Shown here: positions 4,807 through 41,165 of the stretch, in pieces
How the letters are laid out: every line of letters starts with the position of its first letter
How positions within the stretch are numbered: the stretch's first letter is position 1
DNA from: a virus
DNA: 64,000 nt
Reading direction: 5' to 3' (one strand)
IMG/VR virus record: IMGVR_UViG_3300010430_000004
Span: 96,001-160,000 of that record
Notes under the pieces: generated by a model
What the model was told of the DNA's origin: nothing
The model's input: the letters and a program-made list of their open reading frames with translations, nothing else
Database searches by the model: none
Program-made: the position numbers and the translations under genes

Positions 4807-5721
4807 ATGTCAAAATTAGTTACACTTTTATTTGCATTTGCTCTGGCATTCAGTGCTAACGCAAAAACAAGTAAAGTTGCAAAGGTCAAATTGACCGTAG
4901 ATAACACTATTGCCTTAAATGGGCCAGTAATGGAAGATAGCGTACAAGCTGTCCAACTTAAAGCCAAAAAATTGGATGCCACACTAAAAAGTGGATACCC
5001 TATTTATCTTATCTTGAATACTCCAGGTGGATCTATTCAGGCTGGATTAGAGCTTATTGAGTTTATGCGTTCACTAAATCGTCCAGTACATACTGTGACT
5101 ATTTTTGCTGCTTCTATGGGTTTTCAAATCGCCCAACATCTTGGCAAACGTTATATCCTTAAGTATGGTGTTCTTATGAGCCACAAAGCTTCTGGTGGAT
5201 TCCGTGGAGAATTTCCTGGACAATTAGATAACCGTAGAAATTTCTGGGGTCGTCGATTATATGAAATGGACGCTGTAACTGTTAAGCGTACTCGTGGTAA
5301 ACAAACAATGAAAACTTATCGTACTGCTTATGAAAATGAGCTATGGGTTGGTGGAGCAGATAGTAGAAAACTAGGATACGCTGATCAAGTTGTTCGCATG
5401 AGCTGTTCAAAAGAACTTTCTGATAGCCGTGATAAATTGGAAGTTTATTCTTTCTTTGGTAAATTTAACCTAGAATTTTCTGGTTGCCCTACTATTACAG
5501 GACCAACTGCTGTTACTGCAATGATTCGTACAACTGAAGGTTTAATGAGCATGGAAGATTTCAACAAAAAGGGTGGAGTTTATCCTAATGAAATCGGAAA
5601 AGACACCTATGCACCACTTAAAGCATTATCTCCCAAAGTTACTCAAGAGCTTATCCTTGACGAACTTAAAAAGCACCAATACAAGTTTCTTAACAGAGAC
5701 GCTGTTATTCGGAGTTACTAA
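4807..5721 (+). CDS. ClpP-like serine protease with N-terminal signal peptide
   Basis: LNTPGGS, catalytic Ser in AASMG, His in LMSHKA; N-terminus MSKLVTLLFAFALAFSANA; strong SD GGAGG. Confidence 0.75.
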   Translation: MSKLVTLLFAFALAFSANAKTSKVAKVKLTVDNTIALNGPVMEDSVQAVQLKAKKLDATLKSGYPIYLILNTPGGSIQAGLELIEFMRSLNRPVHTVTIFAASMGFQIAQHLGKRYILKYGVLMSHKASGGFRGEFPGQLDNRRNFWGRRLYEMDAVTVKRTRGKQTMKTYRTAYENELWVGGADSRKLGYADQVVRMSCSKELSDSRDKLEVYSFFGKFNLEFSGCPTITGPTAVTAMIRTTEGLMSMEDFNKKGGVYPNEIGKDTYAPLKALSPKVTQELILDELKKHQYKFLNRDAVIRSY

Positions 5722-20401: not shown

Positions 20402-21364
20402 ATGAGTATATTTAAACCTAGAGTAGTTTATAAGCCTTTCGAATACCCATGGGCTGAAGAGTATACTGAGAAACAACAAATGGCTCACTGGCTTAAATCT
20501 GAAGTGCCCATGAGTAGTGACATTAATGATTGGAAAACCAAACTGTCTGAGTCTGAAAAGAATCTTATAGGAAATATATTAAAAGGCTTTACCCAAGTAG
20601 AGGTTATTGTGGGAGATTATTGGACAACCAAGGTTCCTTACTGGTTTCCTAAACCTGAGATTATTGCTGCTGCCATTACTCTAGGAAGCTTTGAAGTCAT
20701 TCACCAACAAGCCTATAGTCATCTCAACGATAGCCTTGGGTTAGATAACTACTCAGAATTTTTAGATGATGAGGCTACTAAAAATAAGCTAGACCTTTTA
20801 GTGGCTACTAAGAACAAAAACAAAGAAGAAATAGCTAGGAGTCTTGCCATATTTAGTGCATTTGGAGAAGGCGTACAATTATTCAGTAGCTTTGCTATTC
20901 TTATGAGCTTTAGCCTAAGAAACCTTATGAAAGGCGTAGGCCAAATAGTGAGTTGGAGCGTTAGAGACGAATCTCTACATTCTAATTTTGGCTGTAAACT
21001 ATTCAGAGAAGTTATTAGAGAGAACCCTGAGATCTGGACAGATGATTTTAAAAAGACTATTTATGACGCTGCACGACTAGTTGTTGAGTTAGAAGATGCT
21101 TTCATTGACAAGGCTTTTGAATTAGGTAATATTCCAGGGCTAACTAAAGAAGACATGAAAGCATTTATCAGACATAGAGCCAGCACCAAGCTAGGCGATC
21201 TTGGGCTAAAAATGAATTGGAAAAATATAGACCAAGCTGCATTAGACAGAATGGATTGGTTCGATAACTTAACGGCTGGAGTAAATCATCAAGACTTTTT
21301 TGCAGGTCGCGTAACAGATTACTCAAAAGGGCACGTAGACTTTAGTGGGATATTTACAAAATGA
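20402..21364 (+). CDS. nrdB: Ribonucleotide reductase class I beta subunit
   Basis: YKPFEYPW, QVEVIV, EVIHQQAYS, EGVQLFSSF, RDESLH, C-terminal DFF.GRVTDYSK. Confidence 0.93.
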   Translation: MSIFKPRVVYKPFEYPWAEEYTEKQQMAHWLKSEVPMSSDINDWKTKLSESEKNLIGNILKGFTQVEVIVGDYWTTKVPYWFPKPEIIAAAITLGSFEVIHQQAYSHLNDSLGLDNYSEFLDDEATKNKLDLLVATKNKNKEEIARSLAIFSAFGEGVQLFSSFAILMSFSLRNLMKGVGQIVSWSVRDESLHSNFGCKLFREVIRENPEIWTDDFKKTIYDAARLVVELEDAFIDKAFELGNIPGLTKEDMKAFIRHRASTKLGDLGLKMNWKNIDQAALDRMDWFDNLTAGVNHQDFFAGRVTDYSKGHVDFSGIFTK

Positions 21365-22283: not shown

Positions 22284-24251
22284 TGAAATACTCAAAAACA
22301 GCTACTATTTTAGCAATGTATGGAGCAGCTTTTTACCTTATAATGGATCCTTTCATTTTTACTGGAGTGCTTTTGTTGTTTATTGGAACAGACCTAGAAA
22401 GTAGATGGCTTAGTGGGCCTGTATTAAAGAAACCTAAAAAAGGTGGCCTTGATCGCTGGCTGAATAGGCATAAAAAATGATTTATTTATTTGAAGACTAT
22501 AGCGGAGAAGATTGGTCTGCCAATGATTATATGAAATATATTGACTGCTTTGGCAGCATTGAAGATCTTGAAAAACGCTTAATGATGGGTGATCTTAGCG
22601 CATACGAAGATTACAGAATTATGGAAAACGGTAATTGGAGAGACGTTAAATTAAAGCAGCATTATAAAAAAGTAACATCAATAAAAGATAAAATTATCAC
22701 TGATGCTTATGGAAATGAACACACTATTCCAACAGAAGTGACAAATAATGAAAAAGACTATATAACTGTGGAGTACTCGTGACTATTGGAATGTGGTTCT
22801 TTTTAATAATGATTCTGTGGTGTGGACACGTACCAAAAAATAGGAAGTGATGTGGATAGCCTTAAAAATATGCTTAAAAAATATTACAAATTCTATAGAG
22901 CGCCACTTAACGAAGATCTTGAGCTTGATCTTGAAAAAATAGTAAACGATGTTGGCACTCATTTTTATAATATGGGCAGAATAACCGAACTAGATAAAAT
23001 GAAAAGAATCAAAAGAGAAGTTATGAGCACTATGATACTTTGTGATGCTTGTGATCTTCAGGTTCCAGAGATGGCTTGTACTTGTTATGAAGTCGATATT
23101 ATAGACGTATTGGACAATATTAAAAAAATACTAGGAGAAAACGATGGATAAAACTGAAGTTGTTGAAAGGCTTAAAGAAATGGCAGCTGATCTTCAAGAG
23201 CTGGGGTTTATACTAACCAACCATGAAGAACAAGATGCTTATGAGATTTTAAACGATGCTGCTGATCTAGTAAATGAAGCCGCCGATACCATAGACGTAG
23301 GTGAAGAATGAGTAATAAAATGATGAGCACTCACGATTTGCATTGCCCTAACTGTCACACAGAGGTTGATCCAGATACTTTGCAGCAACTATGTTTTGAA
23401 CCTTATAATGGAATCTACTTTGAATGTGACGATTGTAAGCATGGATATTCTCTCAATATATATGTAGAAGCCCAATTAATCAGTGAACCAGAGACAGATG
23501 ATGAGTAGTGCTTATATAACTTTAAAAGGCAGGTATAAGTTTTTTCAAGACTTTTCAACAGTAATTATAGATTTTAAAAGAGCCAAAAAATTTGAAGTGG
23601 TAGATGAAGTAAACGGCCTTTTAAGACTAAGAGCCAAAAACTTTGGTATTCTTGGCAAGAAAAATCAGTATGGAAATGGCTGCTTATATTTAAGCCCTAA
23701 AAATATAAAAGGAATACAAGATGAGCGATAAAATGAGCGAAGAATACGGAAAAAGTAAGAGTTTTTTACAAGCATTAGATGAATTTTCTACAGAGCTTAT
23801 GAAAGATTGGATGGAAGTAGAAGAGATTGTTCTAAAAAAGCACAGCTTTATCAAAGCAGTAATGCAAACAATGCCAACTGAAATTGAATACAGAAAACCT
23901 TCAGAAAAAGACTTTCTAGCAAGAGCCCTTGAAGAGGGGTGTTTTGAAATTTATACCCATGCAAATAGAGTCACTATTAGATTGAAGGATGAGGAGTAAT
24001 GGAATTTTTTAGGAAATGTTTAAGCAAAACCACCAGTTCAGATTGGGCGTTTTTATTGGTTCAATTTGGTCTTTTGATTTATGGTGTTTATGAAGAAAAA
24101 CCTGATCTTTTATTTATAATAATTGTAGCTATTAGTTTAGGCTTTTTGTCCAGTCAACTAATATTTAGTGCTTTGCATGACGTAGTAATGGATGAAGCAA
24201 ATGATCTTATAGATATTCAAAAAAAATATATAAAAATACTTAAGGAAAAAG

Positions 24252-24614
24252 ATGAAAGTTGATCGTAGAAAGTTCCTAAAAGCCCTCGGTGGAGTGGCTG
24301 GTGCTGCTGCATTGGGAATTACTCTAATACCTGAAAGAAAAAGCAAACTAAATATTGATTGGTCCTCAGTGGAAACAAAACCTCCAGGGGCTATAGCAGA
24401 TGTTCAGGTTATAAATACTGAAGGTGGAGTTCTTACTCGTGAAATTGTTGAAGAAGCAGCAGAAAGAGCTGTACAAAGCTTTGGTCAACCCTATAAGTAT
24501 ATTATGCCCTATGACGTAGCAAAGGCTTGGATGGAAGTGGACGACAAGACTTTGAAAAAAATTCTAAAAAACAATTCAAATATTATCATTTCTGACTTTG
24601 CTTGGGGATATTAA
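24252..24614 (+). CDS. Tat-signal protein with segment resembling a major capsid protein fragment
   Basis: DRRKFLK plus hydrophobic helix; QVINTEGGVLTREIVEEAAERAVQSFGQPYKYIMPYDV resembles a Twort/SPO1-type capsid segment (recalled). Confidence 0.5.
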   Translation: MKVDRRKFLKALGGVAGAAALGITLIPERKSKLNIDWSSVETKPPGAIADVQVINTEGGVLTREIVEEAAERAVQSFGQPYKYIMPYDVAKAWMEVDDKTLKKILKNNSNIIISDFAWGY

Positions 24615-24619
24615 AAAAT

Positions 24620-24880
24620 ATGAGTCAAACACTTGCAGAAAAATTAAGAAATAAAATTCAAAAAGACCTTTCTATTTTTCTAAAACAGAAAGTTTGGTCT
24701 CCTGAAACAGAAGAGGGCAAACTACAGCGAGAAAATATACAAAAAACTGTAAGCAAAGCTGTTGAGTGCTTTTTAGAAGGAAACGTAACAGAAATACAAC
24801 CAATAATAGAAGACGTTAAAATAGTTGGCAGCTCTATAGAACTAAAGCTATCAATACCAATAAGCTACATAGAGGAATAA
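24620..24880 (+). CDS. Small protein resembling tail-sheath C-terminal / gp25-like domain
   Basis: Two helices then EIQPIIEDVKIVGSSIELKLSIPI; recalled similarity only. Confidence 0.35.
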   Translation: MSQTLAEKLRNKIQKDLSIFLKQKVWSPETEEGKLQRENIQKTVSKAVECFLEGNVTEIQPIIEDVKIVGSSIELKLSIPISYIEE

Positions 24881-40235: not shown

Positions 40236-41165
40236 ATGAAAAATATACTGATTCTACTTTTTATGGTTTTTATGTTGAGTCATTTCGCCAAAGCTGAGAC
40301 TATTAAAATAGCAGTCATTGACACTGGCTTTGATTTTAAATCTGAATGGGGTCCAAATAAACATGGGCTTGTTAAGCCTAAATTTTGTGTAGCAGATTCT
40401 AAAAAGGGAATTTACACTCATAGAGATTTTGTTCTAGAAGAATTAATGAGACCTGAATTTGAAGAATTGAAAGCACTGCTTAAATCTCCTAACCCAGATG
40501 GAGATAGGGTAATGGCCCTTTCTGTTGGTCACAATATCAGGAGAAGATCATTGGCTCAAGATAATCATGGACATGGCACCCACGTTGCTGGTATTATAGC
40601 TAAAGAACTAAAAGACGTAGACTATTGCATGATCATTCTTAAATATTTTGATCCCAATTCTGCTACTAACAATTTGAAAAATACCATAAAGGCTTTTAAA
40701 TATGCTGTATCTTTAAATGTAGACTATATTAATTACAGTGGTGGAGGTTTAGAATACTCTCAAGAAGAAAAAAATATTGTCATGGAGGCACTTAAAAAGG
40801 GCATAAAAGTTGTCACTGCTGCTGGTAACGAAAGAACAAATAGTGACGTTAATAAGTATTACCCTGCTCAATATGACCCTAGAATAATAAATGTGGGAAA
40901 CAGATGCATTGAGTGCGATGGTGGATATATTGAAGGAAAAGACAGATTTGGTAAGACTATAAAAATTTCAAGTAGTAGCAATTATGGAAACTCTATAGAC
41001 TATTATGAAATTGGTGAAAAAGTTATTAGCTTGTATCCAAACAATGGATACGGCCCAATGACTGGTACAAGTCAAGCAACACCCAAGGCTTTGGCTAAAG
41101 AAGTAAAAAGAGACATTCTTCGTAAAAAGATTGAATTTTACGAAAAGACAAAAAACATAATCTAA
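40236..41165 (+). CDS. Subtilisin-like S8 serine protease with signal peptide
   Basis: IAVIDTG, HGHGTHVAGII, AAGN, YPA, GTSQATP; N-terminal signal. Confidence 0.9.
   Translation: MKNILILLFMVFMLSHFAKAETIKIAVIDTGFDFKSEWGPNKHGLVKPKFCVADSKKGIYTHRDFVLEELMRPEFEELKALLKSPNPDGDRVMALSVGHNIRRRSLAQDNHGHGTHVAGIIAKELKDVDYCMIILKYFDPNSATNNLKNTIKAFKYAVSLNVDYINYSGGGLEYSQEEKNIVMEALKKGIKVVTAAGNERTNSDVNKYYPAQYDPRIINVGNRCIECDGGYIEGKDRFGKTIKISSSSNYGNSIDYYEIGEKVISLYPNNGYGPMTGTSQATPKALAKEVKRDILRKKIEFYEKTKNII

Follow-up and report, generated by a model that had tools for sequence, protein, structure and literature searches.

A phage gene that couples a Tat-type leader to a probable segment of the major capsid protein

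Why would a phage gene lying among replication functions begin with a probable twin-arginine export signal and continue with what looks like a piece of the major capsid protein? The gene in question, P0001, was found in a window of 64,000 nucleotides that covers positions 96001-160000 of a virus record 168,536 bp long (labelled G000), a relative of Myxococcus phage Mx1. The open reading frame (ORF) that a preliminary description of this DNA had singled out, at 24252-24614, proved to be a 120-amino-acid gene with an AAGGA ribosome-binding site (Table 1). The same gene, identical in DNA, occurs on four further metagenome contigs of this phage, and a selection test on these near-identical contigs found zero substitutions between copies. 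As read from its sequence, the product is made up of a Tat-type leader and a passenger some 70 residues long, joined by a flexible linker of about 22 residues. P0001 is a genuine and rapidly evolving accessory gene, and the phage that carries it is an uncultured myovirus of the Mx1 type.

Table 1 Features of the P0001 gene and its immediate surroundings, in window coordinates.
Feature	Position	Strand	Details
Upstream 87-aa protein	23999-24262	+	Two hydrophobic helices, charged C-terminus; its stop overlaps the P0001 start by 11 nt
AAGGA ribosome-binding site	24242-24246	+	5 nt 5' of the P0001 ATG; read from the sequence
Whole gene P0001	24252-24614	+	120 codons plus stop; ATG at 24252, stop at 24612-24614 (ORF list, translation)
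Tat-type leader	24252-24329	+	Residues 1-26; n-region with D-R-R-K-F-L-K (residues 4-10, nt 24261-24281), h-region residues 11-26
Linker	24330-24398	+	Residues 27-49; Pro/Glu/Lys-rich, AF2 pLDDT <50
Capsid-like core	24399-24539	+	Residues 50-96; counterpart in the phage's own major capsid protein about 198-244, in the phage K-type protein 187-233
C-terminal tail	24540-24611	+	Residues 97-120; predicted helix and strand, little conservation

P0001 sits amid genes of replication and nucleotide metabolism. Small ORFs of unassigned function surround it, followed by the large subunit of ribonucleotide reductase (RNR), and the window also holds genes for a helicase, SbcCD, a recombinase, a primase, a ligase and NAD salvage. 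The phage's own major capsid protein (MCP, of the SPO1/Twort/Mx1 type) is encoded at G000:C1:1387-2760, about 50 kb away, which bears out the earlier remark that the gene is far from the structural genes. The 11-nt overlap makes translational coupling of P0001 with the upstream gene likely. The upstream protein itself has no family match, and no homologue of it adjoins P0002, the one homologue of P0001 that we describe below. Its two helices had prompted a spanin or antiholin reading, which was rejected since there is no lipoprotein partner and no endolysin nearby and the protein is not conserved beside P0002. Directly 3' of P0001, an 86-aa ORF (window 24620-24880, + strand), for which a likeness to a tail-sheath C-terminus had been suggested, gave no PHROG or Pfam match and no in-genome paralogue at E <= 10. 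In a scan for promoters and terminators, sites were no commoner than in shuffled sequence. As a separate observation, the genome is rich in ORFs with N-terminal hydrophobic leaders of Sec or lipoprotein type (window 4807-5721, + strand; 40236-41165, + strand; and others), among them one that resembles ClpP/prohead proteases and one of 309 aa in which a leader is combined with a D-T-G motif. Judged by such leaders, unusually many proteins of this phage appear to be sent to the envelope.

The twin-arginine motif D-R-R-K-F-L-K and the hydrophobic stretch after it, both pointed out in the preliminary description, pass the cut-offs of two signal models. P0001 scores 23.6 bits with Pfam TAT_signal (PF10518; cut-off 22.7) and 22.6 bits with TIGR01409 (cut-off 16.7). 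The motif is followed by a 16-residue, Gly/Ala-rich h-region with a mean hydropathy of 2.2, in agreement with the consensus (S/T)-R-R-x-F-L-K and a moderately hydrophobic h-region, and the basic residues R29, K30 and K32 stand directly behind it. Inspection by eye found no A-x-A signal-peptidase site close behind the h-region: no small residue occurs within seven positions after I26, the small residues near the h-region are confined to the alanine run A18-A20, and an A-I-A at residues 47-49 is too distant from the h-region and missing in P0002. In P0002, PF10518 scores 20.7 bits by hmmscan and 22.8 bits in a six-frame search, around the cut-off of 22.7. The leader is the best-conserved part of the two proteins, with 13 of its first 21 residues invariant (R-R-K-F-L included), and the Ala-rich h-region is retained as well. 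We consider it likely that the P0001 leader is a working Tat signal. With known Tat signals (PF10518, TIGR01409), including the uncleaved Rieske-type anchors, it shares the R-R-x-F-L-K motif, the weakly hydrophobic Gly/Ala-rich h-region and the basic residues after it. In contrast to the usual Tat substrates, P0001 comes from a lytic-type phage, carries a 70-aa virion-protein piece instead of a cofactor enzyme and has no clear A-x-A.

The likeness of the passenger to a capsid protein was examined at the level of single sequences and of profiles. The MCP of this phage is itself a member of phrog_752 (E = 1e-43). Among named phages, Mx1 of Myxococcus has the closest MCP (52% identity), and SPO1/Twort-type Herelleviridae MCPs come next. 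The preliminary description had aligned the passenger with a 42-residue stretch of a Twort/phage K-type MCP. That 42-mer is found at 100% identity in Staphylococcus phage K-like MCPs, and it aligns gap-free to residues 53-94 of P0001 with 15 of 42 positions identical. BLASTP of P0001 against the MCP of Stab20 gave E = 2e-4, pairing residues 53-109 with MCP residues 187-243, and P0002 matched the same protein in the same register (E = 0.01). An alignment to the phage's own MCP, also suggested beforehand, succeeded in part: BLASTP missed the segment, which is detectable by profiles only, whereas profile comparison placed it at about residues 198-244. At the level of databases the signal is borderline. 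In single-sequence hmmscan the best PHROG match of the core is phrog_752, major head protein (E = 0.034-0.11), and P0002 alone gives no phrog_752 match. The family profile built from the two members P0001 and P0002 (A1) ranks two MCPs, 9row and 5lii, at the top of the PDB sequences, at E = 0.23.

Direct profile-profile comparison yielded a clearer picture. Aligned by hhalign with seven MCPs, the two-member family gave a probability of 88% and an E-value of 3e-6 (88-92% across runs), and the passenger alone scored 46.3, whereas none of 300 column shuffles exceeded 19.6. A profile match to capsid proteins, on which the preliminary description had staked its reading, thus held. When the MCP profile was run against the 261 ORFs of the phage's own genome, P0001 reached 39.1; only the MCP and one protease-like ORF scored higher, and the other 258 stayed at or below 23.7. 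In 18 jackknife runs, with the family, P0001 or P0002 set against each MCP subgroup, the top local match was always the same MCP segment, and core residues 50-96 align gap-free to it in each of the seven MCPs, 8-15 of 46 positions being identical. Additionally, a six-frame A1 search of 42 related phage records returned a match in 28. The best match was the MCP gene in 26 of them (E = 2e-5 to 2e-2 per genome; the frames matched are 462-497 aa long, or 328-356 aa at one contig end), and in G000 and G001, the two genomes that carry a family member, the MCP was the sole non-self match. Taken with a bridging ORF in a sister phage described below, the hhalign, shuffle and jackknife results and the genome-wide MCP matches make it very likely that core residues 50-96 derive from about residues 198-244 of the MCP.

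The relation is to a segment. P0001 has 120 residues where the MCPs have 457-468, and the matched profile positions are 186-242 of 475. The full-length MCP fold (N-arm, E-loop, P-domain with spine helix, A-domain) is not present, the match being confined to residues 50-96, at most up to 109, and membership of the phrog_752 family holds for this segment at profile level. The copied piece is probably a strand, helix, strand and helix of the A-domain, judged from its place after the E-loop and a spine-helix-like stretch and from its pattern in comparison with HK97 gp5 (NC_002167). Since neither A1 nor the MCP profile matched HK97 gp5 significantly in hhalign, this assignment draws on position and pattern only. 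A likeness to 4-oxalocrotonate tautomerase (PDB 7puo, E = 0.75) was rejected: no Pfam tautomerase match appeared at E <= 10, there is no proline at a plausible mature N-terminus, and with the family profile the 7puo match vanished and MCPs ranked first. Elsewhere in the genome, a 585-aa ORF at G000:C1:166758-168515 on the minus strand (L020 976-2733) matches the putative prohead protease of Mx1 with its N-terminal third, and its residues 361-418, approximately, resemble the N-terminal 50-60 residues of the MCP, with an hhalign score of 43 and an in-genome E-value of 4e-3; a similar stretch is found at G001:C1:23600-23740.

Structure prediction added little. AF2 models of P0001 reached a pLDDT of 39.6 from the single sequence and 54.7 from a two-row alignment, both too poor for use, and an Atlas model was equally poor, with feature matches below 0.9. 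Both AF2 runs share a helix at residues 63-77, a strand at 84-86, helices at 87-94 and 98-107 and a strand at 112-114, and the core is predicted, at low confidence, as strand, helix, strand, helix. Foldseek with these low-confidence models found nothing at E <= 0.001 in the PDB and BFVD.

We next turn to the distribution of the gene. An exhaustive HMMER search through 1.84 billion representatives returned a single homologue, P0002, of 108 aa and 37% identity, on a 153.5-kb record of a related phage (G001). Word-index searches for family members of near and longer lengths and a scan of viral contigs gave P0002 only, a metagenome scan gave none, and tblastn against named phages including Mx1 gave no match. 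P0002 retains both leader and core, with a whole-protein identity to P0001 of 37-41%. In the core, 22 of 47 residues are invariant between the two, compared with four positions in the linker, and the best-conserved positions of the passenger are those that it has in common with the MCP segment. The MCPs of the two phages are 73% identical; against the 37% identity of P0001 and P0002, this indicates that the gene evolves much faster than the MCP. The two loci have zero neighbouring genes in common. Tat leaders above the Pfam cut-off were found in only 2 of 27 Mx1-like records, namely G001 and G000, the latter with P0001 and a second ORF, which makes an essential role in assembly unlikely. The second ORF of G000 (G000:C1:49210-49917; L015 711-1415) encodes 235 aa with the leader M-N-R-R-D-L-L-K (23.8 bits; cut-off 22.7), and its passenger has no family match and no in-genome paralogue at E <= 10. 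In 38 loci around related RNR genes no ORF with a Tat leader was found. The low identity relative to the MCP, the unshared neighbours and the presence in 2 of 27 records argue for an accessory, conflict-type character. Leader and core are selectively maintained, the distribution is patchy, and the neighbours are of envelope type.

The surroundings of P0002 deserve a note of their own. It is flanked by two lipoprotein-like ORFs (L007 4693-4995 and 5275-5730) with the lipobox-like motifs L-V-G-C and L-T-A-C, the second of which also carries an H-E-L-G-H motif and a weak PhageMetallopep match (20.3 bits, under the cut-off). Beyond them lie an NMN adenylyltransferase/Nudix-like gene and a NAMPT gene.

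The capsid segment also turns up outside this pair. A leaderless 73-aa ORF of G014 (L147 1456-1677) is 51% identical to its own MCP over 35 residues (E = 7e-8) and 46% identical to P0001 over 28 residues (E = 7e-5); being similar to both, it bridges MCP and P0001. In G008, a small leaderless frame (L146 1243-1638) bears the MCP-segment motif at its C-terminus, and a third weak match to the segment among the sister phages lies at G005:C1:22430-22534. The preliminary description had further called for a search for other fusions of a Tat leader to a structural fragment, and one candidate emerged. In G020 (IMGVR_UViG_3300043540_000091), a 107-aa ORF (L171 1237-1557, minus strand, corresponding to G020:C1:1365-1685) starts with the Tat-like leader M-D-R-R-R-F-L-R, which with a score of 17.8 bits falls short of the cut-off. 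Over 72 residues, the passenger shares 33% identity with a 162-aa frame of the same genome (E = 1.3e-5); it also matches the G000 ORF at 20721-21170, a virion structural protein of phrog_985. This G000 ORF directly follows a sheath-sized gene and is probably the tail tube. The G020 passenger copies the first half of this virion structural protein of about 150 aa, so that a Tat-type leader joined to a virion-protein piece recurs in the clade with another virion protein.

What could such a protein do? The reading that best accounts for the whole, and which we put forward tentatively, at somewhat less than even chances, is that P0001 is an exported or membrane-held mimic of a capsid segment that takes part in conflict. 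The host Tat pathway would recognise the leader and bring the passenger to or across the inner membrane, where it would be either released into the periplasm or tethered by the uncleaved leader, as with Rieske-type anchors. At this site the passenger, by mimicking the capsid segment, would bind a factor of the host or of a rival element that recognises this segment. P0001 would accordingly be a gene of conflict, in defence, counter-defence or competition between phages, and not a building block of the virion. We hold the claim that it acts by mimicry of the capsid segment with the same reserve. A piece taken out of a larger fold may be unable to fold alone, and Tat proofreading might reject such a passenger.

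A different possibility is that P0001 is an ordinary exported envelope protein, acting for instance in superinfection exclusion, receptor masking or the timing of lysis, for which the capsid was merely the source of a domain and is irrelevant to its role. The Tat leader itself, the membrane or lipoprotein genes that adjoin both homologues, the many candidate exported proteins of the genome and the fast evolution would all fit. On the other hand, the best-conserved passenger positions are exactly those shared with the MCP segment, the segment recurs in other mini-ORFs, and G020 has another virion piece behind a Tat-like leader; together these observations point to selection for likeness to the virion itself. 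We therefore regard an ordinary envelope protein as unlikely.

Somewhat less likely still is that P0001 is an assembly poison or exclusion factor, whose capsid piece would bind the MCP of the same phage, of a related phage or of a satellite, either in the cytoplasm before export or at the Tat receptor, and so disturb or localise capsid assembly. The second idea of the preliminary description, a device that hinders or anchors the assembly of capsids, corresponds to this reading. Such a role agrees with a passenger that copies a conserved MCP segment, with the patchy distribution and with the leaderless mini-ORFs of the sister phages, which imply that the segment is usable without export. Yet a working Tat leader would take the piece away from the compartment in which capsids assemble, and a poison of this kind would endanger the phage's own assembly.

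The capsid likeness might also be a matter of chance or convergence, a helix-strand pattern that only resembles the MCP, in which case P0001 would be an unrelated small Tat substrate. The database-level E-values of 0.03-0.23, the profile of only two members and the poor structure models leave room for this explanation. It is nevertheless improbable in our judgement, given the outcome of the shuffle and real-protein controls, the single register found in every MCP subgroup, the fact that the MCP is the best match in 26 related genomes and the sole non-self match in the two carriers, and the bridging mini-ORF of G014. Least probable of all, and by our estimate very remote, is that the leader is the active part, a non-exportable passenger jamming or occupying the TatBC receptor or recruiting leader-binding chaperones so that host Tat export stops: the leader is indeed the most conserved module, and the passenger, predicted at low confidence, may not fold alone, but the retention of the MCP-like core and the different virion piece of G020 would be left unexplained.

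Returning to the exported or membrane-held capsid-segment mimic, we considered what it might bind. The preliminary description had proposed a decoy for capsid-sensing defences such as CapRel and Lit. CapRel and Lit are cytoplasmic sensors; to our knowledge, no capsid reaches the periplasm, and known sensors of capsids work in the cytoplasm. A simple decoy for CapRel or Lit therefore sits poorly with an exported protein, because the Tat leader would remove the passenger from the cytoplasm, and it would fit only if the sensor were captured before or during export. A decoy for capsid-sensing defences is possible but unsupported. The Tat pathway carries folded proteins together with bound partners, by the so-called hitchhiker route. 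Because Tat moves bound partners, a mimic could, as a more remote possibility, capture a cytoplasmic sensor and then expel it into the periplasm or fix it at the membrane.

Comparison with known systems shows how P0001 departs from each of them. Relative to the HK97-fold MCPs (phrog_752; Pfam SU10_MCP for SPO1; PDB 5LII, 9ROW, 9VEL), it has about a tenth of the protein, lacks the N-arm, the E-loop, the spine helix and the C-terminal part, lies 50 kb from the head genes and has gained an export leader. The vertex protein gp24 of T4, a paralogue of the MCP, likewise represents a capsid gene that was duplicated and retained within one genome; it is, however, full-length, cytoplasmic and part of the virion, whereas P0001 consists of a short fragment behind an export leader and is missing from most relatives. 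The Gol peptide of T4 gp23, recognised by Lit, and the sensing of MCP by CapRel offer cases in which a short MCP segment is the recognised unit, and P0001 resembles them in this respect. The Gol and CapRel triggers belong to the real MCP and are recognised in the cytoplasm, in contrast to the export-tagged copy seen here. We know of no other phage-made, export-tagged copy of an MCP segment. Full-text literature searches and family libraries yielded no description of Tat-tagged phage capsid fragments, and a 2026 Tat review, as far as a look-up of terms in it reaches, makes no mention of phage-encoded Tat substrates. The T4 antiholin RI (PMC8385771), a periplasmic regulator, is, like P0001, a small phage protein with an N-terminal signal that is encoded away from the late genes; its signal is cleavable and of Sec type, as opposed to the Tat type of P0001, and it has no likeness to a capsid protein.

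The abortive-infection systems of bacteria respond chiefly to capsid, portal and tail-tube proteins. A broader version of our proposal, which we consider a long shot, is that several phage lineages encode export-tagged virion mimics, that is, Tat-leader copies of those segments (capsid, tail tube, portal) that are seen by immune sensors or rival elements. If the design is real, phages reuse parts of their own virion proteins to make accessory proteins that are exported or held at the membrane. Since proteins of this kind trigger abortive infection, export-tagged copies could mark the virion surfaces that are under surveillance and reveal a new way in which sensors are disarmed. P0001 and its like would, if the reading is true, form the first clear class of phage-encoded Tat substrates and connect the Tat pathway with phage infection in a way that can be tested, and the eviction of sensors by Tat-tagged mimics, should it prove true, would be a new principle of counter-defence.
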